From Bacillota bacterium (GTDB lineage Bacteria > Bacillota > Dethiobacteria > DTU022), in contig JAUWPV010000003.1 of the NCBI GenBank assembly GCA_030611385.1, forward strand, positions 18,996 through 82,995: 64,000 nucleotides of DNA, written 5' to 3'. A program made the position numbers and the translations under genes. The first letter of the stretch is position 1. Every line of letters starts with the position of its first letter. Below the pieces are notes generated by a model, which did no database searches, was not told the DNA's origin, and was given only the letters and a program-made list of their open reading frames with translations. Below are positions 19,398 to 47,938 of the stretch, one piece after another.

Positions 19398-21590
19398 ATG
19401 CCTGTAGTTTTTATTTTGGTTCCGATAAGTTCTCTGATAGCCCTAGGCTTTGCTTATTATTTCTTTAAGCAGATGATGGGTCATGATGAGGGAACGGATA
19501 CGATGAAAAAAATTGCTTCTCACGTTCGCAAAGGGGCGGCAGCCTACCTTCGCCAGCAGTATAAAGTTGTCATAATTGTTTTCGCAGTGATTACGGTAAT
19601 TTTCGTCATACTGGCTTATGGACTGGAGGTTCAGAATAAGTGGGTGCCCTTTGCCTTCTTAACGGGAGGCGCGTTTTCAGGACTTGCCGGTTTTTTTGGA
19701 ATGAAGGCCGCAACCTTCGCTTCTGCCAGGGTGACAAATGCCTGTCGTACTTCGCTTAATGCTGGACTAAAGCTGGCTTTTCGTTCCGGTGCAGTGATGG
19801 GCCTGGTTGTTGTGGGACTGGTTTTGCTTGATATTTCGGCATGGTTTACTGTACTTAACATATTTATTCCTGCTGCCGAAGAAGGTCTCAAGTTGCTTAC
19901 GATTACTGCAACGATGCTTACATTTGGTATGGGCGCATCAACCCAGGCACTTTTTGCCCGTGTTGGCGGTGGAATTTATACCAAGGCTGCCGATGTTGGT
20001 GCTGACCTGGTCGGAAAAATAGAGGCTGGAATACCTGAGGATGATCCACGAAATCCTGCTACCATTGCCGATAACGTTGGCGATAACGTAGGCGATGTCG
20101 CCGGTATGGGTGCCGACCTGTTTGAATCCTACGCCGGATCAATACTGGCTACCGCTCTTCTTGGTGCTGCTGCATTTTCGGGAGCCGGTTTGGTTACGCA
20201 GTATAGTGCTGTATTAGCGCCTATGCTGATAGCTGCAGTAGGTACCTTGCTATCAATTGTAGGAATATTCATGGTTCGGGCCAAGGAAGGAGCAAGCCAG
20301 AAGGAACTGCTCAAGTCAATGGGTTTGGGAGTCAACACGAGTGCTGCTTTGATTCTGGTATTATCCTGGGTGGTCCTATATATGCTTCAATTGCCCAATT
20401 ATTGGGGAATATGGGGCTCAATTGTGGTAGGATTGTTGGCAGGTATTATTATTGGTCAATCAACTGAATACTATACTGCTTCAGCGTACAGTCCAACCCG
20501 AATGATCGCTGCTTCTTCCAGTACTGGTCCGGCTACTGTTATAATTAGCGGTATCGGAATCGGACTCATTTCTACCGCGATCCCTCTTGGAATAATTGCT
20601 CTTGCCATAGCTTTGGCATACGCATTCTCTTCGGGTTTTAGTTTTGATGTGACCAGTCTGAATATGGGGCTTTATGGTATCGGTATTGCGTCCGTCGGTA
20701 TGCTTTCAACACTGGGCATTACACTGGCTACAGATGCCTATGGGCCGATTGCCGATAACGCTGGCGGTAACGCCGAGATGAGTCATCTTGGCGAAGAGGT
20801 GCGTAAGCGGACTGATGCACTTGACACTCTCGGAAATACAACTGCTGCTACCGGAAAGGGTTTTGCCATCGGCAGTGCAGCTCTTACCGCGCTTGCTTTG
20901 CTTGCTGCATACATTGAAGAAGTGAAGATCATGTTTGTCCAGTTTCTTGACAGACCCAATGAACTTATCAATGGTGTACCTGCTTATCAGGCCGAGTTCA
21001 TTGACTTCATACATCATTATGATATACATCTGATGAATCCTCTGGTTATCGTGGGAGTATTCGTTGGAGTATTGTCGGTATTTCTCTTTAGCGGGTTGAC
21101 CATGAATGCCGTCGGACGGGCAGCTCAACAAATGGTTGCTGAGGTTCGCCGCCAGTTTAAAGAAATGCCCGGTATAATGGAAGGCACGACTGAACCTGAT
21201 TATGCGCGTTGCGTAGAGATTTCCACCAGGGGCGCTCAGAAAGAGATGATGTTGCCTTCTTTTATTGCCCTTCTTATACCGGTTATTATCGGTCTTATAT
21301 TTGGTGTGGCCGGAGTTACCGGCCTGCTGGTTGGAACTATTTCAAGTGGTTTTGCCATGGCAATATTCATGGCCAATGCCGGTGGTGCTTGGGATAACGC
21401 CAAGAAATATATAGAAGAAGGTCATCATGGAGGAAAGGGTTCGGATAACCATAAGGCCGCCATAGTTGGTGACACAGTGGGAGATCCGTTCAAGGACACT
21501 TCCGGTCCGAGCCTCAATATACTTATAAAACTGATGGTTATGGCCTCTGTTGTTACCGTAGGTGTAGCAGTAAGCTACAGCTTATTCTAG
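19398..21590 (+). CDS. hppA: Membrane-integral pyrophosphatase, K+-dependent, Na+(,H+)-translocating type
   Basis: [51 protein letters not shown] (Ala, K+-dependent), DLFESY and [14 protein letters not shown]. Confidence 0.95.
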
Positions 21591-26368: not shown

Positions 26369-27550
26369 ATGAAATCGACTGTTATTGTCGGTTATGCACG
26401 CACTCCGTTTGGTAAATATTTAGGAGCTCTGCAGGATGTTCCGGCGGTGGAACTGGGTGCTGTTGCCATTAAAGAGGCGCTTCTTCGTTCCGGGGTCTCT
26501 GCAGACTGCGTCGATAATGTATTTATGGGTATGGTCGTTTCGGCCGGAGTCGGTCAGATTCCCTCCCGGCAGGCCACAATTAAAGCCGGCCTGCCCTATA
26601 CAGTTCCATCAGAAACAATTAATAAGGTTTGCGCTTCCGGCCTGCGTTCAGTTAACCTGGGTGATACCCTGATCAGAGCCGGCGAGGCATCTATAATAGT
26701 CGCCGGCGGTATGGAAAACATGAGTGCAGTGCCCTACTATTTAACGAAGGCACGAAATGGCTACAGAATGGGAAACGCACCAATTATTGACGGCCTGGTG
26801 CACGATGGATTATGGTGTCCGTTTCACAACGTACACATGGGAGTGCACGGCAGTGCGGTGCCGGCCGAACACGGAATAACCCGTGACGCCATGGACCGGT
26901 GGGCTCTGCGCAGCCATCAGTTGGCAGCCGAAGCAACAGAGAACGGCCGTTTAAGCGAGGAAATAATACCGATTACAGTATCCCAGCGAAAGGGAGATCC
27001 ACAGGTTGTTGTTTGCGACGAACTTCCGCGGCGGGATACAACCCTGGAGAAACTGGCTCAACTTCCACCGGCTTTTGAACCAGAGGGATTGATTACGGCT
27101 GGAAATGCCCCGGCGATCAGTGACGGAGCGGCAGCTCTGGTGCTGGTTTCCAGGACTCGCGCCCGCGAACTTGGTTTGGAACCGCTGGCGGAGATTATAG
27201 CTCAGGGAACAGCTTCATTGGAGCCGCGCTACATTGCCACGGTACCCTTTGAGGCAGCTCAAAAAGCTTTAAATAAAGCCGGCCTTTCGATCAGCCAGAT
27301 GAAGCTGATCGAAGTAAACGAGGCTTTTGCGGCAGTCGCTCTTACCAGCATCAAACTTGGCAGTTGGAATGAAAACCTGGTAAATGTCAATGGCGGGGCG
27401 GTTGCCCTGGGGCACCCGATCGGAGCCAGTGGAGCAAGAATATTATTAACATTGATTGTTGAACTGCACCGACGCGGTGGTGGTTACGGATTGGCTACAA
27501 TCTGCAGTGGAGCTGCTCAGGGAGAGGCAACGATTGTTAAAGTTGAGTAG
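26369..27550 (+). CDS. Acetyl-CoA acetyltransferase (thiolase)
   Basis: INKVCASG (catalytic Cys), NEAF, GHPIGASG and ICSG. Confidence 0.94.
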   Translation: MKSTVIVGYARTPFGKYLGALQDVPAVELGAVAIKEALLRSGVSADCVDNVFMGMVVSAGVGQIPSRQATIKAGLPYTVPSETINKVCASGLRSVNLGDTLIRAGEASIIVAGGMENMSAVPYYLTKARNGYRMGNAPIIDGLVHDGLWCPFHNVHMGVHGSAVPAEHGITRDAMDRWALRSHQLAAEATENGRLSEEIIPITVSQRKGDPQVVVCDELPRRDTTLEKLAQLPPAFEPEGLITAGNAPAISDGAAALVLVSRTRARELGLEPLAEIIAQGTASLEPRYIATVPFEAAQKALNKAGLSISQMKLIEVNEAFAAVALTSIKLGSWNENLVNVNGGAVALGHPIGASGARILLTLIVELHRRGGGYGLATICSGAAQGEATIVKVE

Positions 27551-27614: not shown

Positions 27615-28733
27615 ATGATCATGTTTACCCTATCTGAGTACCATCTTAATAAAAAAGAAGAGTTTCGGGAGTTTGCCGGGAAAGAGCTCGATCTCGGTGA
27701 TCACTTTCCGCGCGAAAATCTGCAAAAAGCCGCACAGAAGGGGTATTTAGGGCTGCCGATCCCCAAAGAATGGGGCGGTCAGGGTGAAGATTTTTTGACT
27801 TATATTTTGTTTATTGAAGAAATATCCCGGGTCTGTTCTTCTACCGGAGTGATCATAGCCGTACATACCTCTGTAGGAACTTTCCCAATGCTCTATTACG
27901 GAACCGATCAACAAAAATCTCGTTACCTGCCCGGCCTGGCCGGAGGTGAACTACTCGGTGCTTTTGCTCTGACTGAAGCCGGAGCCGGTTCCGATGCCGC
28001 TGCCCTGTCAACTACCGCGACCACAGTTGACGGCGGCTATTGTTTAAATGGTTGTAAGCTCTTTATTACTAGCGGTGGCGAAGCCGATATCTTTACAGTA
28101 TTTGCTACGGTCGATCGCTCCAGGGGCGTGAAGGGCATCACCGCTTTTCTGCTGGAGAAAGGCATGCCGGGCCTGACCTCTGGCCATCCGGAAAAAAAGA
28201 TGGGTTTGAACCGGTCTAAGACGACAGAGTTGCGAATGGAGGATCTTTTTGTTCCGGCAGCGAACAGACTTGGTAAAGAAGGTGACGGTTTTCAGATTGC
28301 CATGTCGCTGCTGGACGGAGGAAGAATTGGCATTGCCGCACAGGGTTTGGGATTGGCCCAGGCCGGTCTTGATTTCAGCACTGCTTATCTGAAGGAAGGC
28401 GAGGTTTCCGGCAGGAAAACGGAACAGTCGGTCAGTTTTGCCCTGGCTGATGTGGCCACCGGCCTGGAAGCGGCTCGTTTATTGGTCTACCGGGCGGCTG
28501 CAGTGAAAGATTCCGGGATGCGCTGCTCGAAAGAAGCCTCAATGGCCAAGCTGTTTGCTACCGATACCGCGATGGCGACAGCAACGCGCTGTATGGACTT
28601 GTGTGGACTTTCGACCGCGCTAATTGATCACCCATTGAATCGTTTTTTTTGTGATGCAAAAGCAACCCAAATCTATGAAGGATCCAATCAAATTCAGCGT
28701 ATTGTGATCGCCCGGGAGCTTTTAAGGTCCTGA
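27615..28733 (+). CDS. Acyl-CoA dehydrogenase subunit A (catalytic Glu kept, partner-FAD motifs lost)
   Basis: FALTEAGAGSDA, KLFITSG, LDGGRIGIAAQ and QIYEGSNQIQR are present. RxQFG and GGYG are absent. Confidence 0.88.
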   Translation: MIMFTLSEYHLNKKEEFREFAGKELDLGDHFPRENLQKAAQKGYLGLPIPKEWGGQGEDFLTYILFIEEISRVCSSTGVIIAVHTSVGTFPMLYYGTDQQKSRYLPGLAGGELLGAFALTEAGAGSDAAALSTTATTVDGGYCLNGCKLFITSGGEADIFTVFATVDRSRGVKGITAFLLEKGMPGLTSGHPEKKMGLNRSKTTELRMEDLFVPAANRLGKEGDGFQIAMSLLDGGRIGIAAQGLGLAQAGLDFSTAYLKEGEVSGRKTEQSVSFALADVATGLEAARLLVYRAAAVKDSGMRCSKEASMAKLFATDTAMATATRCMDLCGLSTALIDHPLNRFFCDAKATQIYEGSNQIQRIVIARELLRS

Positions 28734-28779
28734 ACAGAGGTTTTTGGGTGAGTGACCATTTAAACTGGAGGATAGCGCT

Positions 28780-29925
28780 ATGGATTTTATGCTGACTGAA
28801 GAACAGGAAATGACCAGGGAAATGGTCCACAATTTTGCTGAAAAAGAACTTAAGCCGGGAGTAGAAGAACGCGACGAACGCGAAGAATTTTCGCGAAAGT
28901 TATTCGACAATATGGGTCGACTTGGGTTGACTGGAATCCCGTGGCCTGAAGAATACGGGGGAGGCGGTTGCCATAATATTAATTATGTGATTGCCGTGGA
29001 AGAACTATCGCGGGTTGATGCGTCGGCCGGTGCCCTCCTTTCAACGCATATATCGCTGGCCGGATGGCCTCTCTTTAAATACGGCAGTGTTGAGCAGAAG
29101 AAGAAATACCTGCAGCCGATGGCCCTGGGCGAGAAGTTGGGGGCTTTTGCTTTAACAGAAGCCACTGCCGGCAGCGCTGCCGACTTACTGCAGACAACCG
29201 CAGTTCTTGACGGCGACAACTATCTGCTTAATGGGAATAAGATCTTTGTCAACAACGGTGGCGAAGCTGAGATCACTATAGTTATTGCCGTTACAGATCC
29301 AGAGAAAAAGGAAAAAGGAATCAGCGCTTTTATCGTTGAAAGAGACACTCCCGGTTATTATAACGGCAAAAAAGAGCATAAGCTGGGCCTGCGATCTTTA
29401 CCGACATCTGAACTTATTTTTGTCAATACACGGGTGCCTAAAGATAATTTACTGGGCAGCGCAGGCGAAGGGCATAAAATTGCTATAAATACGCTCGAAA
29501 ACGGTTCTAACGGCACTGCCGCCCAGGCGGTGGGAATTGCCCAGGGCGCCATGGAGGAAGCTGCGAAATATGCTATAAGCAGGGAGCAATTCGGTCAACC
29601 GATCGCCAACTTCCAGGCAATTTCTGATATGCTGGCTGACATGAGCACAAAAATTGCAGCATCACGCCTGCTGACTTACCAGGCCGCCTATTTGGAAAGT
29701 GCCGGGCTGCCTTATGGCGAGGCTTCGGCAATGGCCAGGGTTTTTTCTTCGGAAACAGCCATGGAAGTTACAACTAATGCAGTACAGATATTCGGTGGTT
29801 ACGGTTTTACACGTGATTATCCGGTAGAACGTTTTATGCGCGATGCCAAGGTTACCCAGATTTACGGAGGAACCATTGAAAGGCAGCGTTGTATTATAGC
29901 GCGTTATCTGTTAAACCAGGCTTAA
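28780..29925 (+). CDS. Acyl-CoA dehydrogenase subunit B (catalytic Glu lost, partner-FAD motifs kept)
   Basis: [12 protein letters not shown] and [20 protein letters not shown] are present. QIYGGT, GSAA and LENGSNG are degenerate. Confidence 0.88.
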
Positions 29926-29942: not shown

Positions 29943-30470
29943 ATGAATAAAAATAAGCCGGGTCTGATCATGGTTTTTACCGGTGACGGTAAAGGCAAAA
30001 CTACGGCCGCTGTCGGTCAGGCTGTACGGGCTCTGGGGCACGGTTTCCGTGTTTATATGATTCACTTCATGAAGGGACGTGATTACGGAGAATTTCTGGC
30101 CACTGCACAGATGCCAAACTTGACCGTGGTCCGGGCCGGACGTGATTGCTTTGTAAATCGCGAACACCCGGATCCAATTGATATCGAATTGGCCAGAGAT
30201 GGCTTCAGTAAAGCCGCAAAAACGGTTCTCAGTGGCGAATATGATCTGGTAGTCCTGGACGAAATCAATGTGGCCGTTGATTACGGTTTAATTGCGGAAA
30301 AAGATTTATTTAAGTTGTTGAAGAAAAAACCGGCCGGTGTGACGGTTATTTTAACCGGCCGGAACGCGTCTGCGGAATTGATTAAAATTGCCGATACAGT
30401 TAGCGAAATCCTGGCGATTAAACATCATTACGAACAGGGAGTAAAAAGCTGTCGGGGAATCGAGTATTAG
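29943..30470 (+). CDS. Cob(I)alamin adenosyltransferase, CobA/BtuR/CobO type
   Basis: TGDGKGKTTAAVG, LVVLDEI, ILTGRNA, and KHHY..G....GIEY. Confidence 0.92.
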   Translation: MNKNKPGLIMVFTGDGKGKTTAAVGQAVRALGHGFRVYMIHFMKGRDYGEFLATAQMPNLTVVRAGRDCFVNREHPDPIDIELARDGFSKAAKTVLSGEYDLVVLDEINVAVDYGLIAEKDLFKLLKKKPAGVTVILTGRNASAELIKIADTVSEILAIKHHYEQGVKSCRGIEY

Positions 30471-30487: not shown

Positions 30488-31453
30488 ATGCAGCAACTGG
30501 TCACAGAATTGTTACAGGGTAACCGGCGTGCAGCAGCACGTCTCATTTCTCAGATTGAAAATGACGATCCGCAGAAGACGGATCTGCTGAAAGAAATATA
30601 TCCACATACCGGCAGGGCTTATGTTATCGGTATAACCGGAGCGCCAGGCTCGGGGAAAAGTTCTCTGGTAGATTGCCTGCTGCAGCAGATGCGCAGCGAC
30701 GGCCTGACGGTAGGAGTGATTGCCGTTGACCCGACCAGCCCCTTCAGCGGCGGGGCCATACTGGGTGATCGCATTCGCATGCAGGATCATGCTCTTGATC
30801 CGGGCGTTTTTATCCGCAGTATGGGCACCAGGGGTAGCCTGGGCGGATTATCCCGGGCGACCGGGGAAACAATCCAGGTTCTCGACGCCTATGGAAAGAA
30901 TCTGGTTCTTGTTGAAACGGTTGGGGTTGGCCAGTCGGAAATTGATATCGTTAAAGCTGCCGATACCACTCTTGTAGTGCTCACTCCGGCCGGCGGTGAC
31001 AGCGTACAGACGATCAAGGCCGGGATCATGGAGATAGCGGATATTTTTGTAATCAACAAGTGCGATCTGCCCGGATCGGACCGGACAGCTGCCGAAGTAA
31101 ATATGATGATTGATATGAAAAACGGTGAATCGTGGCGGCCACCGGTGATATCCACAAACGCGGTCAGCAATATTGGCATAGATCAGCTATGGGCTGCACT
31201 GCTCGAACACCGCGGTTACATGGAGAAAAGCGGTCGACTTTTGGAAACGCGCCGCCAGCGGGTCAGACGAGAATTGACCGAACAGGTTGAATACCTGGTT
31301 AAAAAACGAATCTGGGACCGGGTTAAAGAAAAGATAGAGTTCAACGACATGGTTGAAAAAATAGTTCAGCATCAGCAAGATCCTTACAGCACAGCACACG
31401 AACTTCTGGAAAAGATAAAATTTTATAATGGAATAGTCGGAGAGGATGGTTAA
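30488..31453 (+). CDS. meaB: MeaB/ArgK-family GTPase chaperone of the B12 mutase
   Basis: GITGAPGSGKS, AVDPTSPFSGGAILGDRIRM, ETVGVGQSE and INKCD. Confidence 0.94.
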   Translation: MQQLVTELLQGNRRAAARLISQIENDDPQKTDLLKEIYPHTGRAYVIGITGAPGSGKSSLVDCLLQQMRSDGLTVGVIAVDPTSPFSGGAILGDRIRMQDHALDPGVFIRSMGTRGSLGGLSRATGETIQVLDAYGKNLVLVETVGVGQSEIDIVKAADTTLVVLTPAGGDSVQTIKAGIMEIADIFVINKCDLPGSDRTAAEVNMMIDMKNGESWRPPVISTNAVSNIGIDQLWAALLEHRGYMEKSGRLLETRRQRVRRELTEQVEYLVKKRIWDRVKEKIEFNDMVEKIVQHQQDPYSTAHELLEKIKFYNGIVGEDG

Positions 31454-31456
31454 GTG

Positions 31457-33118
31457 ATGGAAAGGGAAAAATCCGACAGAATCAGGAGAGAAAAAACCGT
31501 ATGGCAGGAAGAAGTTAGTCAGATGAAGCAACGCAATGAACCTTTTAGCACTGTTTCAGGCCAGCCGATCGAAGCTCTCTACACACCGCTGGATCTCGGC
31601 GATTTCGATTGCGAAAAAGACCTCGGATTTCCGGGCAGTTATCCTTACACCAGGGGCGTTCAGGCGAATATGTACCGGGGTCGTCTCTGGACGATGCGCC
31701 AATTTTCAGGTTTCGGTGATGCCTTTGATTCGAATCGCCGTTATCGGTACCTGCTGGAACAAGGGCAGACCGGTTTGAGTGTTGCCTTCGATATGCCGAC
31801 GATCATGGGCTATGACTCTGATCATGAACGTTCACTCGGCGAAGTAGGCCGCTGCGGGGTGGCGATTGACTCTTTAGAAGATATGGAAGTGCTTTTTGAT
31901 CAAATTTCGGTTGACAAAGTAACTACTTCGATGACGATCAACGGGCCAGCGGCGATCCTCTGGTGCATGTATCTGGCCAATGCCGAAAAACAGGGTATCA
32001 GCCTGAGCCGGGTCGGCGGTACGATTCAAAATGATATTCTGAAAGAATATATCGCCCAGAAATCTTGGATTTTTCCGCCTGAACCTTCAATGCGCCTGAT
32101 TACTGATATTTTTGCCTTTGCAGCAGATCATGTACCGCAGTGGAATACGATCAGCATCAGCGGCTATCATATTCGTGAAGCCGGTTCAACAGCAGTACAA
32201 GAGCTGGCTTTCACGCTTGCAGATGGGTTTGCCTATATCGAAGCGGGGATAAAGGCCGGTCTTGATGTTGATCGTTTTGCCCCGCGTTTATCGTTCTTTT
32301 TTAATGCCCATATCGATTTTTTCGAGGAGATCTGTAAGTACCGTGCAGCCAGGCGGATCTGGGCACGCCGTATGAAAGAGCGCTATGGTGCCAAAGATCC
32401 CCGCTCTCTGAAGCTGCGCTTCCATACTCAGACAGCCGGCTGCAGCCTGGCGGCGCGGGAACCGGAAAATAATATTGTTCGCACTACCCTGGAAGCTCTT
32501 TCCGCCGTCATGGGCGGCACCCAGTCATTGCACACCAACTCAATGGATGAAGTGATGGCCCTGCCGACCGAAAAGGCGGTTAAAATAGCGCTGCGCACAC
32601 AGCAGGTTATTGCTTATGAAAGCGGGGTGGCCAACACGATTGATCCCCTGGCCGGATCATACTTTATCGAAGCTTTAACCGATCAAATGGAAGCAGAAGC
32701 GGAAGCGTATTTTAATAAGATCGATAATCTCGGTGGAGTGCTGAATGCAATAGACTGTGGTTTCTTCCAACAGGAGATCGCCGATGCTGCCTACACCTAC
32801 CAGCGGGCAGTGGACAATTGTGAGAGAATTGTTGTGGGGGTAAACTGTTACAACAACGGGGAACCGCAACAAATTGAACTGCTCAAAATTGATCCGTCAG
32901 TCGAAGAAAAGCAGGTCGGGCGACTGCGCAGGCTACGCGAGAAACGCGAAAACGATACAATAAACCGCTGCCTGGAAAACCTGAAAAAGTGTGCTGCCGG
33001 CAGTGACAACCTGATTCCGAAAATTTTAGAGGCTGTGAAAGTTTACGCCACTGAAGGCGAGATAGTGGCTGCTTTAAAAGAAGTATTTGGCGAATATAAA
33101 GAAAAACCGATATTTTAA
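31457..33118 (+). CDS. icmA: B12-dependent acyl-CoA mutase large subunit with isobutyryl-CoA mutase specificity residues
   Basis: MCM-family TIM barrel ([33 protein letters not shown]). Specificity positions are RQFSGF (Phe) and EYIAQK (Gln), not the Tyr/Arg of MCM. Confidence 0.82.
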
Positions 33119-33129
33119 GGAGGGTCAGG

Positions 33130-33534
33130 ATGAACAGTAGAAAAATCAGAGTGCTGGTGGCGAAACCGGGGCTTGATGGCCACGATCGCGGAGCAAAGGT
33201 GGTTGCCCGGGGCCTGCGTGATGCCGGAATGGAAGTTATTTATACGGGATTGCATCAGACACCGGAGCAGGTAGCCGAAACAGCCCTGCAAGAAGATGTT
33301 GACGTAGTCGGTTTAAGCATTCTTTCCGGGGCACACATGACCCTGACTCCAAGGATTAAAAAGCTTCTGCAGAAAAATGGAATGAACGATGTGCTGTTGC
33401 TTGTTGGCGGTATTGTTTCAGAGGAGGATGCCGCCGAACTGTTGAAAAGTGGCTGTGCAGATCAGGTATTTACACCCGGCGAGCCTCTTGATAAAATTAC
33501 CGGATATATCAGGGAGGCAATCAACGGACGCTAG
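33130..33534 (+). CDS. icmB: Acyl-CoA mutase small, cobalamin-binding subunit
   Basis: [12 protein letters not shown] (DxHxxG), GLSILSGAH and VGG. Confidence 0.88.
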
Positions 33535-34573
33535 AATTACCAGCAGCTTTAACCGGTCGGGCATTTACCGCTTTCCGGGTTGCTTTATGCTGAGAGCTAA
33601 TATTATGCATTCTATGCCAGGCCAAAAAGTCAGTGACCGCTTCACTTAACGGACGTGGTTTATAGCCAAGTTCCCGCCATGCTTTCTGATAACTGAACAG
33701 AGAATTATCGAGCAGTGTTTGCAATGAATAAACCGTATAGCTTGATTTTATTTTTAGCCACTGGAAGAACCGCTGTATAAAATAGATAGCAAACATGGCC
33801 AGCTTGATCGGTATTTTTAGTTTCACGGCACGGGTCCCGGTTGCATTATGAGTCATCTCCAGCAGGTTTTCAACGGTTACCTGAGTGCCGGATAATATGT
33901 AAATTTCACCGCTGATGCCCTTATCCCGAGCCAGGATTAAGCCCTGCGCCACATCGCGCACATCAACAAAATCATAAGCCCCGTCGATCAGAATGTTTAT
34001 TTTTCGATCTGAAAAAGAAAGCAGAGTTCTACCCATGTCAGAATCGAAATAGTCGTGAGAGCCGATGATTCCACTGGGGCAGACAATGACTGCATCGAGC
34101 CCCTTGTTGACAATATCCAGAACTGCCAGAGTTCCTTCAGCTTTGGAGCGATCGTAAGATCCGAACGGGCTGTCCAGAGCCAGCGGTGTGTTTTCATCGA
34201 TGGTTACACCGTGTGGTTCACGGCGAAAAGCATGAACCGAGCTGACATGAACCAAACGTTTGACTCCGCTAGCCAGGGCGGTTTCAGCAACATTGCGCGC
34301 CCCTTCAACGTTTACACGATGCATGATCTCCTCCATTCCCGGCCTGATTGAGATCACTCCGGCCAGATGGAAGACCGTATTAACTCCAGCCATCGCTATT
34401 TTGAGGGCTTCACGGTCGAGGATATCACCGACAACTACTTCGATCAGCATACCCTCTAAAGATTGAAGAGCTTCACCAGGTCGAACCAAAGCCCTCACTT
34501 TTTCTCCGGTGTCGATCAGTTCACGCACGAGCACATTGCCTAAATGTCCGGTTGCTCCGGTTACAAGAATCAT
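33521..34573 (-). CDS. Extended SDR, NAD-dependent epimerase/dehydratase (dihydroflavonol-reductase/HpnA-like)
   Basis: [24 protein letters not shown] and FVDVRDVA. Confidence 0.85.
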
Positions 34574-35175
34574 TTTTCATCTTTCCTTTCAATACCTTTT
34601 AGGATCAAATCGATACTGTTATGCAATACTTTACCCCAGTCCGCGCCGGTTGGATCCATAGAGGCCTGTAAAAACAAACCGCTCGAAAGCGATAACAACA
34701 GTTGGCCTGTTATGATCGGATCAACTTCTCCAAGCGTACCCTCGGCGATGCCGCGACGAACCAGTCCGGCAAAGATTTCCTGGTAACGGCGGTAGGGGGC
34801 AATAGTGGCTGAACGAACTTTTTCGTTGCGGCTGGCGTGAGACCACAATTCTAGGAATAAGCCCAAAATCTCTTGATTATGTTCGATTACCGGTTGAAGC
34901 CTACCGGCCATGTCGAGCAGACCGGTGGGCACTGTTTCAGACTGGGAAACTACGCTCTGCAGAGTAACTTCCAGGTTCTTCAGCCAGGAATCGATTAATT
35001 CAAGGAAAACAGTTTCCTTACTGTCGAAATGGTAATAGAATGCTCCCTTGCTGACCCCCGCTTTTTCGCAGATTTCAGCCACACCGGTGGCATCATAGCC
35101 CTCGGAGGCGAAGCAGCGTGTCGCTTCATCCAGAATTGCCGTTCGAGTTTGCGTGCTGCGTTGAGTGTTATTCAT
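34570..35175 (-). CDS. TetR/AcrR family transcriptional regulator
   Basis: HTH F...GY..T.V.EIC..AGVSKGAFYYHFDSKE. Its stop overlaps the SDR start (ATGA). Confidence 0.92.
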   Translation of the reverse strand: MNNTQRSTQTRTAILDEATRCFASEGYDATGVAEICEKAGVSKGAFYYHFDSKETVFLELIDSWLKNLEVTLQSVVSQSETVPTGLLDMAGRLQPVIEHNQEILGLFLELWSHASRNEKVRSATIAPYRRYQEIFAGLVRRGIAEGTLGEVDPIITGQLLLSLSSGLFLQASMDPTGADWGKVLHNSIDLILKGIERKDEK

Positions 35176-37459: not shown

Positions 37460-38848
37460 ATGACTGAGGGAAAAATATCTTCCCTGACGGCGAACAGGGA
37501 CAGCAAACTATTACTGCAGACGATTATAGATTCCCTGTCAGATGCAGTTTCGGTAGTTGATGAGAAGGGGATCGGCATTATGATCAACCGTGCCTATACC
37601 CGAATTACCGGAATGTCGGAAGAACAGGTTTTAAAAAAGCCTGCTACCGTAGATATCGCTGAAGGTGAAAGCGTTCACTTAAGAGTATTACAGACCGGTA
37701 AGCCGATCAAGGGCGTACGCATGAAGGTCGGCCCATTCAGACGGGAGGTAATTGTCAGCTGTGCGCCGTTGATTATTAACGGAGAACTTAAAGGCAGTGT
37801 GGGTGTAATACACGACATATCTGAATTACGCCGGGTGATGGAAGAACTTGAACGGACCCGCCGTTTGATCAGAAAGCTTGAAACGCGCTATACGTTTGAT
37901 GATATTATCGGCAGCAGTGATCAGATTCGGGATACAATTGAGAGAGCTGTGCAGGCCGCTGCCACTCCGGTTTGCGTCCTGCTGCGTGGAGAATGCGGCA
38001 CGGGAAAGGAACTGTTTGCGCATGCCATTCATCATGTCAGTGAAAGGGCGGAAAAGCCGTTGATCAGAGTTAACTGCGCCTCACTGACCGATACCCTTTT
38101 AGAAAGCGAGCTGTTCGGATATTCTGACGGCGCTTTTACCGGTGCGAAAAAGGGCGGACGTAAAGGATATTTCGAAGAGGCTTCCGGCGGGACACTTTTT
38201 CTTGACGAAATTGGAGCGATGAGCCTTGAAGCTCAGTCCCGGCTGCTACGGGCAATCCAGGAAGGTGAAATAATCAGGGTTGGTGAATCGCGCACCCGCA
38301 GGATTGACGTCAGGGTTATCGCCGCAACCAATGCTGATCTGGAGAAAATGGTCGAAAAAGAACTGTTCCGCAAAGATCTCTATTATCGCCTTAACGTTTT
38401 TCCGATTGAGATGCCCCCGCTGCGAGAGATTAAAAGTGATATTCCTCTGCTGGTTAATCACTGCCTCTCCCGTTATGCCCAGGAATTTGGTCGTACTGTC
38501 ATTGAAACCACTCCGGCAGTCTACCGCCGCCTGAAAGAATACGATTGGCCCGGCAATGTTCGCGAATTACAGAATATAATTGCCCGGGCTTTGATTAATC
38601 TGAACCGTGAAGAGAACATTATCGACGAGAAACATCTGACGATGCCCTTTATTAATGATCCGGAACCCTGTAAGAACGACTCAGCGCCGTTTGAAGGTAC
38701 GTTAAAAGATATGCGCCACACCTGGGAAAAAGCAATTATCCGCAAAGCGATGCGGGAAAGCGAAGATAACAAGGCTGAAGCGGCCCGCCGCCTCGATATA
38801 TCGATCCGTAACCTCTACAATAAACTTCACCGATATAAACTTCTCTAA
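37460..38848 (+). CDS. Sigma-54 enhancer-binding activator (PAS-AAA+-Fis HTH; BkdR/RocR-like)
   Basis: PAS-like N-terminus, GECGTGKE, ESELFGY..GAFTGA, LFLDEIG, YDWPGNVREL and NKAEAARRLDIS. Confidence 0.93.
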   Translation: MTEGKISSLTANRDSKLLLQTIIDSLSDAVSVVDEKGIGIMINRAYTRITGMSEEQVLKKPATVDIAEGESVHLRVLQTGKPIKGVRMKVGPFRREVIVSCAPLIINGELKGSVGVIHDISELRRVMEELERTRRLIRKLETRYTFDDIIGSSDQIRDTIERAVQAAATPVCVLLRGECGTGKELFAHAIHHVSERAEKPLIRVNCASLTDTLLESELFGYSDGAFTGAKKGGRKGYFEEASGGTLFLDEIGAMSLEAQSRLLRAIQEGEIIRVGESRTRRIDVRVIAATNADLEKMVEKELFRKDLYYRLNVFPIEMPPLREIKSDIPLLVNHCLSRYAQEFGRTVIETTPAVYRRLKEYDWPGNVRELQNIIARALINLNREENIIDEKHLTMPFINDPEPCKNDSAPFEGTLKDMRHTWEKAIIRKAMRESEDNKAEAARRLDISIRNLYNKLHRYKLL

Positions 38849-38915
38849 AATGGTCCCCCGATTTTCCGATCCTGAATGAGCACCCCTGAATTATGGTTCC
38901 TCCGGTTTAAGTATT

Positions 38916-38931
38916 TGGTATGTAAATTGCT
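38916..38931 (+). promoter_or_regulatory. Sigma-54 (SigL) -24/-12 promoter
   Basis: TGGTATGTAAATTGCT fits TGGCAC-N5-TTGCW and lies directly after the activator gene. Confidence 0.82.
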
Positions 38932-38977
38932 TTATTATTTCGTGGAAAGTAATATTTAACTGCAGGGAGGAATAATT

Positions 38978-40015
38978 ATGTCTGGTTGCCTGGCCAGGAT
39001 GGCCGAGCAGGGGTTTGAAGAGTTGGTACTATTTCATGATGCCGGAACAGGATTAAAAACAGCGATTGCCATTCACAGCACTGCGCGAGGCCCGGCACTC
39101 GGCGGGACACGGATGTGGGTTTATCCGAACGAAGAAGCTGCCATTGAAGATGTAATGTGCCTGGCTCGCGGGATGAGTTACAAGTCGGCTGCAGCCGAAC
39201 TGCCGATCGGTGGAGGCAAGGGAGTGATTATCGGTGATCCCGGCCGCGATAAGAGTGAAGCATTATTCAGGGCCTATGGCCGTTTCGTTGAAAAATTAAA
39301 CGGGCGTTTTATTACGGCAGCTGACATGGGTATAGAGGAACATGATCTTGATTGTATACGCCTGGAAACAAGACATGTTATCGGCGGGTCGGCTCTCGGC
39401 AGCCCTTCCCCGCTTACGGCTTACGGAACCTTGAAAGGAATAAAGGCCTGCACTGAAGAGGTTTTTGGATCGCCGAATCTGGAAGGCCTGATTGTGACTG
39501 TTCAGGGTGTTGGCAGTGTCGGCATGGCCCTCTGTAAAAACCTGGCGGAAGAAGGGGCGCTTCTGATCGTAACAGATTTCGATCAAAAAAAAGTAAGAGA
39601 AGCAGTGGAGTGCTGGAATGCGAAAGCTGTTGCACCGGATGAAATATATGCGCAAAAATGTGACATATTTGCTCCCTGTGGGGGAGGTGGTGCGGTTAAC
39701 CTGGAAAGCCTGCCGCAATTGCAGTGCCGTATTGTTGCCGGTGCCGCTAATAATGTTTTAAAAGAAAAAGAACTCGGGGCCGCATTAAAAGAACGGGGTA
39801 TTCTCTATGCGCCTGATTACATCATCAATGCAGGCGGAATAATCTTTGTCGAGTTCAGCCGCCAGGGAGAAAAGAACCTTGAAAAAATAAAGGCAGTAAT
39901 CGACCGCATCGAGGGTCGCATGAAAGAAATATTCCGCCGTTCCCGCGAACAGAATCTGCTGCCCGAAGAGGTAGCCGATCTGATTGCCGAAGAGAAACTG
40001 AGGGAGAAAATTTGA
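38978..40015 (+). CDS. Glu/Leu/Phe/Val dehydrogenase (leucine dehydrogenase-like)
   Basis: GPALGGTRM, GMSYK, GGGKGV, PSP.TAYG, QGVGSVG, AGAANN and YAPDYIINAGG. Confidence 0.92.
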   Translation: MSGCLARMAEQGFEELVLFHDAGTGLKTAIAIHSTARGPALGGTRMWVYPNEEAAIEDVMCLARGMSYKSAAAELPIGGGKGVIIGDPGRDKSEALFRAYGRFVEKLNGRFITAADMGIEEHDLDCIRLETRHVIGGSALGSPSPLTAYGTLKGIKACTEEVFGSPNLEGLIVTVQGVGSVGMALCKNLAEEGALLIVTDFDQKKVREAVECWNAKAVAPDEIYAQKCDIFAPCGGGGAVNLESLPQLQCRIVAGAANNVLKEKELGAALKERGILYAPDYIINAGGIIFVEFSRQGEKNLEKIKAVIDRIEGRMKEIFRRSREQNLLPEEVADLIAEEKLREKI

Positions 40016-40043
40016 TTATATTTAAGATGAGCATCGGTGACCA

Positions 40044-40088
40044 TGCAAATTTTTGCATGCAAACAATTGCAAATTGCAATAATTTGCA
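40044..40088. promoter_or_regulatory. Triple TGCA-N6-TGCA palindrome, probable activator-binding enhancer
   Basis: TGCAAATTTTTGCA (40044-57), TGCAAACAATTGCA (40058-71) and TGCAATAATTTGCA (40075-88). Confidence 0.65.
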
Positions 40089-40102
40089 AGGAGGGATTAA
40101 TA

Positions 40103-40693
40103 ATGACAAATGAAATGCTTGAGTTCCGACTGCATGGGCGGGGCGGTCAGGGTATTGTGGTGGCGGCAGTTATCTTTGCCGAAGCGATGTTCCTGGAAGG
40201 TTATTACGCCAGGGCATTTTCACTGTATGGCGCTGAGCGACGCGGTGCGCCGGTAACTGCATTTATTCGGGCCAGTAAAGAACGCCTGATGCCGCGAAGT
40301 CGTATTTACCAGCCGGATTACGTGGTTGTTTTCGATTCGACACTTTCCGGTAGCACCCTGATTGCCGGTTTGAAAGAAGAAGGGACACTATTAATTAATT
40401 CCGGGGAAAACTGGAATAAAAATCTTCCCAGAGAAATATTACCGGAAAAACTCTTTAAAATAAATACTATTGACGCCCTAGAAATAGCCTGGAAACATAA
40501 ACTGACTATCGGTAGTTTCCCAATGGTTAATACGGTAATGCTCGGTGCTCTGGCCAGAATCAGTGGTCTGGCTTCCCTTGAAAACCTGATTACTTCAATC
40601 AAAAAAAAGGTTACGGTCAGAATTGATGCCAACATCAGCGCTGCTACCGAAGGTTATGAAAGCGTAAAGGAGGTGGGACAGCTTGCCACCTGA
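40103..40693 (+). CDS. 2-oxoacid:ferredoxin oxidoreductase gamma subunit
   Basis: EFRLHGRGGQG, YGAERRGAPV.AF.R and NTVMLGA. ATG 40103 follows AAGGAGG. Confidence 0.93.
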   Translation: MTNEMLEFRLHGRGGQGIVVAAVIFAEAMFLEGYYARAFSLYGAERRGAPVTAFIRASKERLMPRSRIYQPDYVVVFDSTLSGSTLIAGLKEEGTLLINSGENWNKNLPREILPEKLFKINTIDALEIAWKHKLTIGSFPMVNTVMLGALARISGLASLENLITSIKKKVTVRIDANISAATEGYESVKEVGQLAT

Positions 40694-42227
40694 GCTGACT
40701 AAAGAAACCGAATATTACCAATGTGGGACTGAACCCAGCACCGCCAATAAGACCGGTGAATGGCGCTTTCTGACCCCGGAAAAAGGCAGAAAACTCTCTC
40801 CGTGTCGTCAAAGTTGTCTACTGGAGGGAGAAATTCCACTCTGGTTGGAAGCTGTCAAGAAGGATAAGTGGAAGGAAGCCTGGCAGATTATGAGCCTCTA
40901 TAATCCTTTTCCGGCCCTGACCGGGCATGTCTGTTTTCATCCCTGCATTGAAAACTGCAACCGGGGTCAACTGGACCAGGAAATAGATATCCAGGCGATT
41001 GAAAGAGCTATCGGGGAATGGCGCCTGGCCAACTATGAACGATTGGTGAAACTGAAAGAGGCAAAAGGACGGATTGCCATAGTCGGCTCGGGTCCAGCGG
41101 GTCTCAGCTGCGCCTATTATCTTAATGAAGCCGGGTACGCAGTTACTGTTTATGAACGCTCTAAACTGATTGGGGGCATGCTTGCCCTGGGTATTCCCGA
41201 TTATCGCCTGCCGCGGAAAGTTTTACAAAAAGAATTGGCTCTGCTGCAGGAGGAAGGTATAAAATTTGTGGCTGGCTGCACCATTGGTAAGGATTTGAAA
41301 CTAACCGAGTTATATGATCAATATTTACAGGTTTTTGTAGCCACGGGCGCGTGGTTTTCCCGTAAATCGGCAATTCCCGGAGAGGAAAGCAGAGGGGTCT
41401 GGAACGCTCTTGACTTTTTAAGCATGATTAACAGCGGGCAGGTACCCGCAGCCACGGATCCGGTTGTTGTGATCGGAGGAGGAAATGCTGCCGTAGACAG
41501 TGCCCGCAGTGCGCTCCGGATGAATGGAGTTAACAATGTTACGCTGATCTATCGCCGCAGCAAGGTGGAAATGCCGGCAGATCCGCAAGAGGTTGAGGCA
41601 GCGGAACGTGAAGGAGTAGAGCTTATCTTTAATGCTCTGCCGCGGAAAATTGAAAAAAAAGGTGAAGTTATCAGGGCCGTACTGCTTGACCACTGTAAAA
41701 CAAGCCTGGAAGGGTTGACCGTCGATTGCAGCCGAGCCTTCCGGAAGAACTGTGGAACGGTAATTATGGCCATCGGACAGGAAGCCGATCTGTCCGTATT
41801 CGGGAACATGGAGAAACCGACTACGCTTTTTGCCGGAGGTGATCTGATCAGTGGTCCGGCAACAGTTCCCGAGGCAATCAGATCGGGACGACTGGCTGCC
41901 GCGGGTATCCGGGCTAAAATTGAAGGGTTGCCTGAAACTGAACCAGTCAGTGCAGAAGAGAACCCTGTGCTTTTCAGTGAATTGAACCTTAAATCGAAGA
42001 TAAATTTAGAACTGCAGCAAAGACAGGCTGATCCGTCAGCTGAAGCCGGCCGGTGTTTAGGGTGTGGATCCTGTACTTCATGTGGAATCTGCTACATATT
42101 TTGTCCTGACCTGGCGGTTGATCAGATCGATGGCCGCTATCAACTCAACCCGGACTACTGCAAAGGGTGCGGCATTTGCGTAAAAGAATGCCCATCCCAA
42201 GCGTTGATCATGAAAGGAGGCAGGTAA
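40683..42227 (+). CDS. 2-oxoacid oxidoreductase delta subunit fused with a GltD/NfnB-like FAD/NAD(P) oxidoreductase
   Basis: Delta N-motif NKTGEWR..P; Fe-S Cys (PCRQSC, HVCFHPC..NC); GSGPAG, GIPDYRLP, IGGGNAAVD..R, YRR and FAGGD; C-terminal EAGRCLGC and two CxxCxxCxxxCP (DYCKGCGICVKECP). Confidence 0.85.
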   Translation: MPPELTKETEYYQCGTEPSTANKTGEWRFLTPEKGRKLSPCRQSCLLEGEIPLWLEAVKKDKWKEAWQIMSLYNPFPALTGHVCFHPCIENCNRGQLDQEIDIQAIERAIGEWRLANYERLVKLKEAKGRIAIVGSGPAGLSCAYYLNEAGYAVTVYERSKLIGGMLALGIPDYRLPRKVLQKELALLQEEGIKFVAGCTIGKDLKLTELYDQYLQVFVATGAWFSRKSAIPGEESRGVWNALDFLSMINSGQVPAATDPVVVIGGGNAAVDSARSALRMNGVNNVTLIYRRSKVEMPADPQEVEAAEREGVELIFNALPRKIEKKGEVIRAVLLDHCKTSLEGLTVDCSRAFRKNCGTVIMAIGQEADLSVFGNMEKPTTLFAGGDLISGPATVPEAIRSGRLAAAGIRAKIEGLPETEPVSAEENPVLFSELNLKSKINLELQQRQADPSAEAGRCLGCGSCTSCGICYIFCPDLAVDQIDGRYQLNPDYCKGCGICVKECPSQALIMKGGR

Positions 42228-42229
42228 TT

Positions 42230-43372
42230 ATGCCATTTGAATTAATCAGCGGCAGCCAGGCTGTAGCAATCGCTGTTCAGCGTGTCGGAGTTGATTTGGT
42301 GGCAGCGTATCCGATTACCCCGCAAACAGCAATTGTTGAAACCTTAGCCAGTATTGATGCAAAAGGAGAACTCGGTGGTGAGTTTGTCAGCGTGGAATCT
42401 GAATATGCAGCACTGGCTTTCTGTAAGGGAGCGGCAGCAGCCGGCGCCAGGGTTTTTACGGCAACCTCTTCACACGGCCTGGCCTATATGCATGAAATGA
42501 TCCACTGGTGCAGTGGGGCCCGTTTGCCAATTGTAATGGTCAATGTGAATCGTGCAATCGGTGCACCGTGGTGTCTTGATCCGGATCAGGGCGACAGTCT
42601 GAGCCAGCGTGATACCGGCTGGCTGCAGATCTATTGTTCAAGCGCCCAGGAAGTATTTGACACGGTTCTGCAGGCCTTTGCCCTCAGTGAGGAACTGCTT
42701 TTACCCAGCATGGTCATCTATGATGGATTTTATATATCGCACACCTATGAAGCGGTAGATGTACCGGAAAAGCAGATAGTCAGACGCTTTATCGGACCGC
42801 CTGTCTTTCCGGCCCAGGTTAAACCAGGTTCATTGGGAAACCTGCACGGCCTCACAACCAGCGAAACACAATTGGGTTTGATCAGAAGACGGCATGAGGA
42901 TATGCTGAGAGCGCCGGCACTATTTGATCAAATCAATGACCGTTTTGCACAAATATTCGGACGAAGATATAAGGTGATCGATTCGGTCATCCCACCGGGT
43001 TCCAAAACGGTGATTTTAACTGTGGGCGCTACCGCCGAAACGGTCCGGTGGTGTTTGCCGAAACTAAAAGATATCGGATTGATTCAGCTGCGGATGTTCC
43101 GTCCTTTCCCGGCCGAACGACTAGGCAGTTTACTGAAGGCTCATGAAGTGGAAAGAGTTGTAGTAATTGATCGCAACTGCTCTGTGGGCATGGGTGGGAT
43201 TTTTGCCCAGGAACTGAGAGCGGCAATTTACGGAATGACCAATCCTCCGGCAGTGGACGACTTGATTTTGGCTGGTGGTGTCGATTTGACGGTAAAAATG
43301 TTAGAAAATATGCTCGACTCAAGATCAGCGGAAAGCCGGGTTGGGCAAAAGTGGGGGACTGATTTACAGTGA
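42230..43372 (+). CDS. 2-oxoacid:ferredoxin oxidoreductase alpha subunit
   Basis: AYPITPQT, VESE, ATSSHG, VNRA and FRPFP. ATG 42230 follows AAGGAGG. Confidence 0.93.
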   Translation: MPFELISGSQAVAIAVQRVGVDLVAAYPITPQTAIVETLASIDAKGELGGEFVSVESEYAALAFCKGAAAAGARVFTATSSHGLAYMHEMIHWCSGARLPIVMVNVNRAIGAPWCLDPDQGDSLSQRDTGWLQIYCSSAQEVFDTVLQAFALSEELLLPSMVIYDGFYISHTYEAVDVPEKQIVRRFIGPPVFPAQVKPGSLGNLHGLTTSETQLGLIRRRHEDMLRAPALFDQINDRFAQIFGRRYKVIDSVIPPGSKTVILTVGATAETVRWCLPKLKDIGLIQLRMFRPFPAERLGSLLKAHEVERVVVIDRNCSVGMGGIFAQELRAAIYGMTNPPAVDDLILAGGVDLTVKMLENMLDSRSAESRVGQKWGTDLQ

Positions 43373-44262
43373 AAATTGATGAACTGAACCGCGAATCGGA
43401 GATGATTTATTCGGGACACAATGCCTGTCCCGGCTGCGGCGCGGCCCTGGCAGTCCGTTACCTTACCAGGGCTCTCGGAACTAACCTGGCCGTGGTTTTA
43501 ACGGCATCCTGCTGGAGTATTATCGCCGGGATGCCCCCGTTTACAGCGTTAAAATGCCCTGTATTGCACTGTCCATTTCCCAGTGCCGGTTCGGTAGGCA
43601 GCGGGCTGAAAAGGGGCCTTAACGCTAAAGGTTTGCAAGATACGACAGTGATTGTCCTGGCCGGGGATGGCGGTACCTTTGATATTGGTTTGCAGTCATT
43701 GTCCGGTGCGGCTCAGCGCAATGAAGACTATATTTTTGTCTGCTATGACAATGAAGCTTATATGAATACAGGGATGCAGTCCAGTTCGGCCACACCATAT
43801 GGAGCTCTGACCAATACTGCCCCTTATCCGCTCTTCAAAGAGGGGCAGAAGAAAGATATTATGCAAATTATGGCAGCGCATGGTATCCCTTATGCCGCTA
43901 CGGCAACAGTTGCTTTTCCGGAAGATATGGAGGAGAAACTAAAAAAAGCCAAAGAAATCAGCGGATTTCGGTTTATCCATATTCTTTCGCCCTGTCCTCC
44001 TGGTTGGGGAACAGAGTCTTCCGACACCATTCACCTGTCAAGACTGGCTGTTGCAACGGGATTTTTCCCTCTTTATGAAGTCAGAAACGGCGTCAACTGG
44101 AAAATGACCGTTCCAACCGACGAGAAAAGGATTCCCTTGAACGATTACCTCAGTGGGCAGCGCCGCTTTAAAAAAATGGATGAACCCCGCAGGCAGATTT
44201 TGCAGAAAGAAATTGATCGAGACTGGGAAAGTTTAATGAAAAGGGTAAACAATAGTAAGTAA
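43369..44262 (+). CDS. 2-oxoacid:ferredoxin oxidoreductase beta (TPP-binding) subunit
   Basis: GHNACPGCG, GDGGTFDIG, YDNEAYMNTG.Q and SPCPPGW. Confidence 0.93.
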   Translation: MKIDELNRESEMIYSGHNACPGCGAALAVRYLTRALGTNLAVVLTASCWSIIAGMPPFTALKCPVLHCPFPSAGSVGSGLKRGLNAKGLQDTTVIVLAGDGGTFDIGLQSLSGAAQRNEDYIFVCYDNEAYMNTGMQSSSATPYGALTNTAPYPLFKEGQKKDIMQIMAAHGIPYAATATVAFPEDMEEKLKKAKEISGFRFIHILSPCPPGWGTESSDTIHLSRLAVATGFFPLYEVRNGVNWKMTVPTDEKRIPLNDYLSGQRRFKKMDEPRRQILQKEIDRDWESLMKRVNNSK

Positions 44263-44305
44263 GGAAAAATAAAATTTAGAATTATAATAAATCTTATAAA
44301 CGGCA

Positions 44306-44334
44306 GCAGGAATTTACCGCAACGAGCAGAAAAT
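44306..44334 (+). promoter_or_regulatory. Sigma-H-like promoter of the fumarase operon
   Basis: GCAGGA-N17-GAAAAT. Confidence 0.45.
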
Positions 44335-44386
44335 TTTAAGTAGTGTTAATGAATGCTATTTAAGATTATCAGGGAGGTGTCGTGTT

Positions 44387-45232: not shown

Positions 45233-45262
45233 ATCTATTTGAAAGAAAGGAGGCAAGTTATA

Positions 45263-45814: not shown

Positions 45815-45875
45815 TCCAATTTATAATTTATTTGAATATGAAAGATCTAAAAATATAGAAAGTAGGGAATAGATT

Positions 45876-47216: not shown

Positions 47217-47230
47217 ATCAGGAGGATAAT

Positions 47231-47914: not shown

Positions 47915-47938
47915 ATCCGGAGAGGAGGAGTAAATAAA

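Follow-up and report, generated by a model that had tools for sequence, protein, structure and literature searches.

A candidate heteromeric acyl-CoA dehydrogenase derived from butyryl-CoA-dehydrogenase-type paralogs in the B12-dependent mutase operon of a Bacillota bacterium

Acyl-CoA dehydrogenases (ACADs) built from two different subunits are known from steroid catabolism and, by suggestion, from dicarboxylate catabolism in aerobic Actinobacteria and Proteobacteria (PMC11153573, PMC8399759, bioRxiv 10.1101/2025.02.21.639450). The steroid enzymes described in these sources include ChsE4-ChsE5, ChsE1-ChsE2 and IpdE1-IpdE2 of Mycobacterium tuberculosis and Scd1AB of Pseudomonas, which are alpha2beta2 heterotetramers with two flavin adenine dinucleotide (FAD) molecules and two active sites per tetramer, the FAD lying at the heterodimer interface (PMC11153573, PMC8399759). 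The pimeloyl-CoA dehydrogenase PimC/PimD and beta-proteobacterial dicarboxylate ACAD pairs are suspected heterotetramers (bioRxiv 10.1101/2025.02.21.639450). Here we describe two adjacent ACAD genes, A and B, of an uncultured anaerobic Bacillota bacterium of the class Dethiobacteria, located in a 64,000-nucleotide stretch of contig JAUWPV010000003.1 (positions 18,996 to 82,995) that is called the window below and whose numbering is used for all features, which are on the + strand unless stated otherwise. The flavin sites of the two predicted proteins show complementary losses and relatives preserve earlier stages, so A and B are probably functional only when combined in a mixed complex; we put at roughly 65% the probability that A and B of the window assemble as a heteromer in which each A-B dimer has a single FAD and a single active site, and which arose independently of the steroid alpha2beta2 ACADs.

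An earlier note on this DNA had proposed such a heteromer on the premise that ACAD flavin sites are completed across a subunit interface, and the premise agrees with the 2026 cryo-EM structure of human SCAD, the short-chain acyl-CoA dehydrogenase. As described in PMC13027082, F152, L154, S155, T187, G160, S161, T364 and E396 contact the FAD of their own monomer, R297, Q365 and G369 reach it from the adjacent monomer, E392 is the catalytic base, D269 and R272 contact CoA and substrate, and the substitution Q365H blocks tetramer formation. The Asp of the GSD motif is invariant among the ACADs compared in a published study of LCAD. The note's appeal to alpha2beta2 enzymes as a precedent is likewise in keeping with the description in PMC11153573, where isoalloxazine, catalytic Glu and substrate are assigned to the alpha subunit and the ADP-ribose to beta.

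Gene A (27615..28733) encodes 372 amino acids and gene B (28780..29925) encodes 381, each as an open reading frame (ORF) with three Pfam ACAD domains (PF02771, PF02770 and PF00441, all above cut-offs in both), which places both products in the acyl-CoA dehydrogenase superfamily. The genes are separated by 46 nt, with an AGGGGAG Shine-Dalgarno sequence upstream of A and a GGAGG Shine-Dalgarno sequence 8 nt upstream of B, and their products are 40% identical (149/377, E 2e-89). The closest PDB structures for both are of the butyryl-CoA dehydrogenase (Bcd) type, from clostridia and Bacillus (5ol2_C, 4l1f, 5lnx; E 1e-99 to 1e-132), and the best matches are clostridial Bcd (E 1e-107 to 1e-132). All motifs that the earlier note had quoted were found in the translations, namely GSDA, FITSG, LDGGRIG, YEG, YLKEGEVSGRKTEQ and DLCGLST in A, and REQFG..FQ, QIFGGYG, YGGT, GSAA, FVNNG and LENGSNG in B.

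To place these motifs on the published contacts, residue offsets were taken from the PDB match table (8sgs_A, human SCAD) and cross-checked on the motifs. In A, none of eight own-site positions is changed (the equivalents of F152, L154, S155, here Thr, T187, G160, S161, D162 and E392 are kept), and the catalytic Glu355 is encoded at 28677..28679 within YEG. All three contacts that A would donate to its neighbor are lost (R297 to G262, Q365 to D328, G369 to L332): residues 258-271, YLKEGEVSGRKTEQ (28386..28427), stand in place of YAxxRxQFG, with Gly262 as the R297 equivalent, and residues 326-334, CMDLCGLST (28590..28616), stand in place of AVQxxGGYG.

B, which aligns to SCAD without gaps over 375 residues, shows the reverse. 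None of its donated contacts is lost, as Arg268 (29581..29583; SCAD R297) and residues 336-340, QIFGG (29785..29799; SCAD Q365..G369, with Q336 and G340), are present. Its own site has lost the Asp of GSD (D162 to Ala133, 29176..29178), the Thr that hydrogen-bonds the flavin (T187 to Asn158, 29251..29253) and the catalytic Glu (E392 to Gly363, 29866..29868, YGG for YEG), and in residues 240-243 ENGS replaces DGGR (29497..29508), whereby the CoA and substrate contacts D269 and R272 become E240 and S243. Among the 119 other B-family clusters, Glu 363, Asp 133 and Arg 243 are present in 119/119. At the alternative IVD/LCAD position, too, a Glu is missing from B, as the earlier note had said; the residue aligned there is Gly, in contrast to the 'PER' that two further ACADs of this genome carry. 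A catalytic Glu is thus found in A and not in B, and neither protein both receives and donates FAD contacts as each subunit of a homotetrameric Bcd or SCAD does. Both donated motifs are kept in 6/6 other ACADs of the window genome (within the motifs, QFN or QFK occurs in two of the six, AF in one and GGIG in one), and since Glu 363 is also universal among the other B clusters, the residue pattern of the pair is not one expected by chance.

The loss in A extends over its whole family. When the best 120 clusters matching A (58-97% identity) were aligned with A itself, G125, S126, D127, R237, Y354 and E355 were each kept in 121/121 clusters, and position 152 was Thr in 118 and Ser in 3. At the donated positions, residue 262 is variable (R 28, Q 26, E 11, G 10, others), 102 clusters have D and 2 have Q at 328, and 332 is L in 38, F in 15, P in 12 and others in the remainder. 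The second donated segment carries a new semi-conserved motif, C-x-D-L-C/W-G, of which C326 is kept in 102/121. Additionally, the own site is intact in all 36 A sequences derived from genomes. Because GSD, R237 and YEG are kept throughout while the donated segments vary, the loss in A is selective and not decay, with the donor function released and catalysis conserved. A subunit that is predicted to be catalytic yet unable to complete the FAD site in a homodimer would need a donor subunit.

A related-locus search with A yielded 2 close relatives among 27 loci, and a genome search was used instead. The 149 genomes searched from the class include 67 with an ortholog of A (E <=4.5e-119, at least 57% identity). 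At 42 A loci inspected for a neighboring B, the gene lies directly 3' of A in 35, a contig end blocks the view in 3, and the remaining 4 have no B next to A. The conserved operon order, with the thiolase gene 5' of A, is thiolase-(hbd-crt)-A-B-adenosyltransferase-MeaB-mutase, so that the tie to a B12 mutase drawn in the earlier note holds for a pair that sits within a mutase operon. Operons of the deep families have hbd and crt between the thiolase gene and A, with acyl-CoA synthetase and solute symporter genes nearby, and thereby form a unit of complete short-chain beta-oxidation plus mutase. A frame of 699-706 aa in the relative G086 that resembled an A-B fusion was rejected, as a run of N lies between two genes.

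In a tree of 36 A, 33 B and three other ACADs of the window genome (FastTree, LG+gamma), A and B form sister clades, and the family order f7, f6, f3, f5, f1 is repeated in each. This repetition indicates that the duplication is older than the class, which makes A and B an old tandem pair of Bcd-type ACAD paralogs. The state of the donated contacts in A follows the families. In f3, f6 and f7, A is fully intact in 14/14 sequences (two with QFN for QFG), as is B; in f5, A retains R..QFG and has Q365 replaced by S and G369 by A in 3/3; and in f1, the family of the window, 19/19 A sequences lack Gln and Gly at the Q365 and G369 positions and the Arg is kept in 6/19, with four more f1 A sequences in the same state. 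Branches of A are longer after the donor loss and branches of B are short except that of the window, the mean distance among f1 relatives being 0.35 for A and 0.147 for B. Judged from these distributions, the two losses differ in age, that of A being old and family-wide and that of B confined to the species-level lineage of the window.

Genomes supplied 33 B sequences for the main set and two further segments, 35 in all. The motifs R..QFG and Q..GG.G are present in 33/33 (RQFG included) and also in the two further segments. A search for changes in B that track the degeneration of A, comparing f1 and f5 with f3, f6 and f7, gave six conservative fixed differences, none of them in the contact motifs. 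Three B-type matches flagged for an internal stop are 1-3 residues longer (380-381 aa) than their frames (379-380 aa) and were taken as read-through of the terminal stop.

The altered B is shared by close kin of the window organism. Three sister protein variants (about 94.5% identity, from other assemblies) have the same E363G, D133A, D240E, G241N, R243S/C and F283D, and in contigs from four other runs of four studies (labeled cold-seep, sediment, marine and estuary) the coverage of B shows neither gap nor indel. B is thus an open, indel-free frame in at least four strains of the window lineage, and it diverges no more than its neighbors do: on records confined to B, its nucleotide divergence is 4.3-4.4% in runs X3 and X8 and 1.4-1.9% in X2, the corresponding figures being 3.5-4.5% and 1.5% in A, and 4.4% in the thiolase gene. 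At the amino-acid level, B differs from the sister strain by 5.5%, A by 4.6%, MeaB by 1.2%, the mutase by 2.7%, a nearby short-chain dehydrogenase/reductase (SDR) by 6.0% and a TetR regulator by 7.5%. Of the 40 strain differences listed from a total of 410, B has 4, half of them synonymous and half nonsynonymous, too few for a ratio of nonsynonymous to synonymous rates. None of the 16 runs listed is an RNA run. As a separate observation, high-depth contigs in runs X4 and X8 join window position 28365 to 29586 with 37 other letters between; these most likely represent one ordinary ACAD gene of an abundant other organism, aligned half to A and half to B, and not a recombinant.

Several results weigh against an A-B heteromer, and most concern B. 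Its own site is intact in 34/35 B sequences with the window as the sole exception, so the mirror-image state belongs to one lineage and one evolutionary event. The earlier note's description of B as the mirror image of A therefore stands for the window lineage and falls as a conserved state; relatives do not conserve the complementary pair, as A has lost its donor contacts family-wide and B is intact in 34/35 operons. The gene layout of an alpha2beta2 ACAD (adjacent genes, Glu in one subunit) is accordingly found in the window lineage only, B having its Glu in the other 34 of 35. Moreover, B of the window, whose next cluster is 79% identical to it, departs from the family at 28 of the 240 columns with 95% conservation or more (median 1 and maximum 9 in the 119 other B clusters), a sign of relaxed evolution. 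Its distance to relatives is 0.254 versus 0.147 among the relatives, a ratio of 1.73 that in the six other cassette proteins is 0.92-0.99. Since the split from the sister strain, B has gained 12 derived changes in the window against 2 in the sister, many at invariant sites, an asymmetry that fits ongoing loss of constraint; A has 6 against 6. These figures would suit a B that is on its way out, drifting after a loss of function that followed the gain or retention of a second B-type Bcd in the genome, with the FAD contacts for A coming from another intact ACAD and the heteromer formed without B. The main rival partner is the product of a second intact B-type Bcd gene of the genome (C35 1896-3041, L058 289-4902), which is 60% identical to B, has nearly intact donated motifs, nests inside the B clade, and could serve as an alternative partner or replacement for B as well as cover ordinary Bcd activity. 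True orthologs of this C35 type (77-87%) occur in only 4/72 family genomes, which counts for this view; the two carriers whose B is among the sequences compared, G016 and G020, have B intact, so that presence of the C35 type is at most permissive for the loss. A neutral gene is expected to diverge at roughly the synonymous rate and to gather indels and stops. B does neither, as its frame is open, without indels against SCAD or in the contigs of the four other runs, and its nucleotide divergence is at the level of constrained neighbors, which counts against neutral decay; it also keeps all donated contacts and its ribosome-binding site. The earlier note had held that intact relatives together with neutral decay here would refute a heteromer; intact relatives do exist for B, its loss being limited to the window lineage, while B does not show neutral decay here. 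We therefore regard a B in the course of being discarded as unlikely.

The remaining points against the pair concern the partnership of A with B. In two genomes of one deep genus, G121 (C82, L072) and G122 (C81, L073), the operon reads symporter-acyl-CoA synthetase-thl-hbd-A-mutase large-mutase small, without B, adenosyltransferase or MeaB; a B-type gene lies on another contig, and A is fully intact. In two species of another genus, G047 (C72, L074) and G049 (C29, L076), thl and A stand alone, and in G049 B-adenosyltransferase-MeaB-mutase is on a separate contig. In G047, which is 95% complete, A has an intact own site and neither a B-type gene nor an acyl-CoA mutase of either type was found. 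With the new conservation in A's replaced segment (D328 and C326, 102/121 each) and the completeness of both paralogs in the deep families, where they could be separate enzymes, these loci would be in keeping with a partner-free A, that is a homotetramer that holds FAD by its own contacts or by altered binding through C-x-D-L-C/W-G, beside an independent Bcd, B, that died. We consider this improbable: 33 B, 14 deep-family A and this genome's other six ACADs all keep the three donated contacts, the Q365H substitution at one of them is reported to prevent tetramer formation in SCAD (PMC13027082), and a partner-free A leaves unexplained why a dead B keeps precisely the donated contacts. Although the genome is a 54-contig assembly, an artefact of assembly or sequencing is for practical purposes refuted, as the same B substitutions recur in the three sister protein variants, which come from other assemblies, four additional runs from as many studies contain contigs of related strains, and the state of A is common to 121 clusters.

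We thus favor the A-B heteromer, for which the retention of a catalytically dead B with its donated contacts and the known alpha2beta2 division of labor both count. Under this reading, two paralogous Bcd-type enzymes would first have been encoded in tandem. A would then have dropped the contacts that it gives to the FAD of its neighbor while keeping its own site, a change tolerable only beside a giving subunit, which would be B. In the A-B dimers so formed, the own site of B would have been without A's contribution; B is intact in relatives presumably because B-B dimers also work, and in such relatives A would still need B, and B could also act alone. Finally, one lineage would have lost the own site of B and kept the residues given to A. 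The enzyme of the window organism would then probably be an A2B2 tetramer in which isoalloxazine, substrate and catalytic Glu355 lie in A, Arg268, Gln336 and Gly340 of B serve the ADP-ribose part of A's FAD, the pocket of B is vestigial, and electrons pass to the genome's single EtfAB. The sequences themselves show the residue pattern, its fit to the published contacts, the graded phylogenetic series of losses and the upkeep of B. The physical association of A and B, the FAD stoichiometry, the substrate (butyryl-CoA from isobutyryl-CoA) and heteromerization before the losses are what we infer from these patterns. For the broader claim of an independent second origin of an obligate alpha2beta2 ACAD with extant intermediates, running from an intact pair through one-sided dependence of A to mutual dependence in one species, we see even odds. 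If it is true, the whole ratchet that leads from two homomeric enzymes to an obligate heteromer with half the active sites can be seen stage by stage in extant genomes.

In the window, the pair belongs to a seven-gene + strand cassette: a thiolase gene (acetyl-CoA C-acetyltransferase; 26369..27550; Pfam Thiolase_N/C, NCBIfam NF006086 at 569 bits against a cut-off of 526); A, the alpha-like subunit; B, the beta-like subunit in the window lineage; an ATP:cob(I)alamin adenosyltransferase of the CobA/CobO type (29943..30470; Pfam PF02572, with NCBIfam scores near but under cut-offs); a MeaB-type mutase chaperone GTPase (30488..31453; TIGR00750 at 364 bits against a cut-off of 241); the large subunit of an acyl-CoA mutase (31454..33118; per family scans); and the small B12-binding mutase subunit (33130..33534; per Pfam and NCBIfam scans). 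The large subunit reads RQFSGF and YIAQK where human methylmalonyl-CoA mutase (MCM) reads RQYAGF and FMVRN and HCM reads RQIAGF and YMAQK. A second mutase of the genome, encoded on contig C22, reads RQYAGF and YAARG and so has the Tyr and Arg of human MCM, for which the window mutase has Phe and Gln. We take Phe and Gln at the substrate Tyr and Arg positions of MCM to be the signature of isobutyryl-CoA mutase, which the window mutase fits, and by these residues it would be of the isobutyryl-CoA mutase type. We propose that the operon serves to isomerize and beta-oxidize (or form) short branched or straight acyl-CoAs.

Other loci of the genome that touch on these subjects were also noted. The second mutase (C22:52504-54617, L060) is a split acyl-CoA mutase with methylmalonyl-CoA-type residues, 57% identical to the window mutase, and the EtfAB pair (C22:34791-36010, L059) is on the same contig. 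The neighbors of the B-type gene on C35 are an enoyl-CoA hydratase gene and an HpaB-family (4-hydroxybutyryl-CoA-dehydratase-like) gene, and two overlapping ORFs of that contig (3331-3693 and 3644-4066) both match class II aldolase, like one gene split by a frameshift. Within the window, the cassette lies directly 3' of purD, at the end of a purine row (purE, purB, purC, purQ, purL, purF ... purM, purN, purH, purD) that has a membrane H+-pyrophosphatase gene (19398-21590) in its midst. On the - strand, genes for an HpnA/SdmB-like NAD-dependent epimerase/dehydratase (SDR) and a TetR regulator (33521-35175) converge on the cassette end, and both differ from the sister strain by more than the cassette genes do. 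Further downstream, at 37460-50754, a sigma-54 activator with PAS is followed by a 2-oxoacid:ferredoxin oxidoreductase set with an extra flavoprotein, and then by a fumarase of two subunits, malic enzyme, an Fe-S protein together with a flavoprotein resembling fumarate reductase, and a CoA-transferase of family III; this block could encode a C4-dicarboxylate or succinate pathway.

The nearest described relative of the cassette as a whole is Slip_0757-0760 of Syntrophothermus lipocalidus, an isobutyryl-CoA mutase cluster for which isomerization of isobutyrate and butyrate before beta-oxidation has been proposed (PMC5017805). Like the window, this cluster has mutase large and small subunits, a cob(I)alamin adenosyltransferase and a MeaB-like protein, and paired ACAD genes are not mentioned in the cluster description of PMC5017805. 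Nearest to A and B in sequence, and of the same fold, are the homotetrameric Bcd of Clostridioides difficile (5ol2) and Acidaminococcus (4l1f) and human SCAD. Orthologs of B carry all catalytic and FAD residues of these enzymes; however, the homotetramers hold four FAD, whereas A is predicted to be unable to complete a homodimer site and B of the window to be unable to catalyze.

With the steroid alpha2beta2 ACADs, the pair shares two adjacent ACAD genes and, in the window, a catalytic Glu in one subunit, and the division of labor described for those enzymes, with isoalloxazine, Glu and substrate on alpha and ADP-ribose on beta, is the one that we propose for A and B. The pair also resembles PimC/PimD, as a two-gene ACAD outside steroid catabolism for which a heterotetramer is suspected. 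It differs from all of these in descent. A and B are sister Bcd-type paralogs with 40-49% mutual identity, and by sequence neither falls in the ChsE, IpdE or PimCD clades: the best 60 PDB matches of A or B include no ChsE chain, the IpdE2 model gives 71 bits against a cut-off of 450, and the PimC and PimD models give 73-89 bits against 624 and 60-108 bits against 653. PimC/PimD is reported as related to ChsE1/2 (43% similarity; bioRxiv 10.1101/2025.02.21.639450), and A-B stands apart. Thus, the origin from Bcd-like paralogs put forward in the earlier note is supported both by the best PDB matches and by these low scores. In further contrast to the steroid enzymes, the substrates of A-B would be small acyl-CoAs in the mutase operon of an anaerobe, and almost all relatives have a beta-like protein B that is complete as an enzyme.

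In the full-text literature searched, which leaves most subscription journals outside, no published Bcd-type heteromeric ACAD and no ACAD pair tied to isobutyryl-CoA mutase was found. The conversion of duplicated homomers into obligate heteromers by complementary loss has received a general treatment (PMC11066126). Both subunits of the known heteromeric ACADs are fully specialized, so the rise of the architecture cannot be read from them. In the Dethiobacteria, living lineages at intact, half-degenerate, one-sided and two-sided stages make the passage from homomer to obligate heteromer, a long-discussed question, directly testable, and they also advise caution in annotation, as genes named 'acyl-CoA dehydrogenase' cannot be treated as interchangeable in these bacteria, which are widespread in sediments and digesters. 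The same division of labor seems to have arisen separately from ordinary Bcd paralogs in anaerobic Bacillota. In comparison to the known systems, then, the heteromeric architecture is already familiar, and what would be new is its Bcd origin, its mutase context and its extant intermediate stages.

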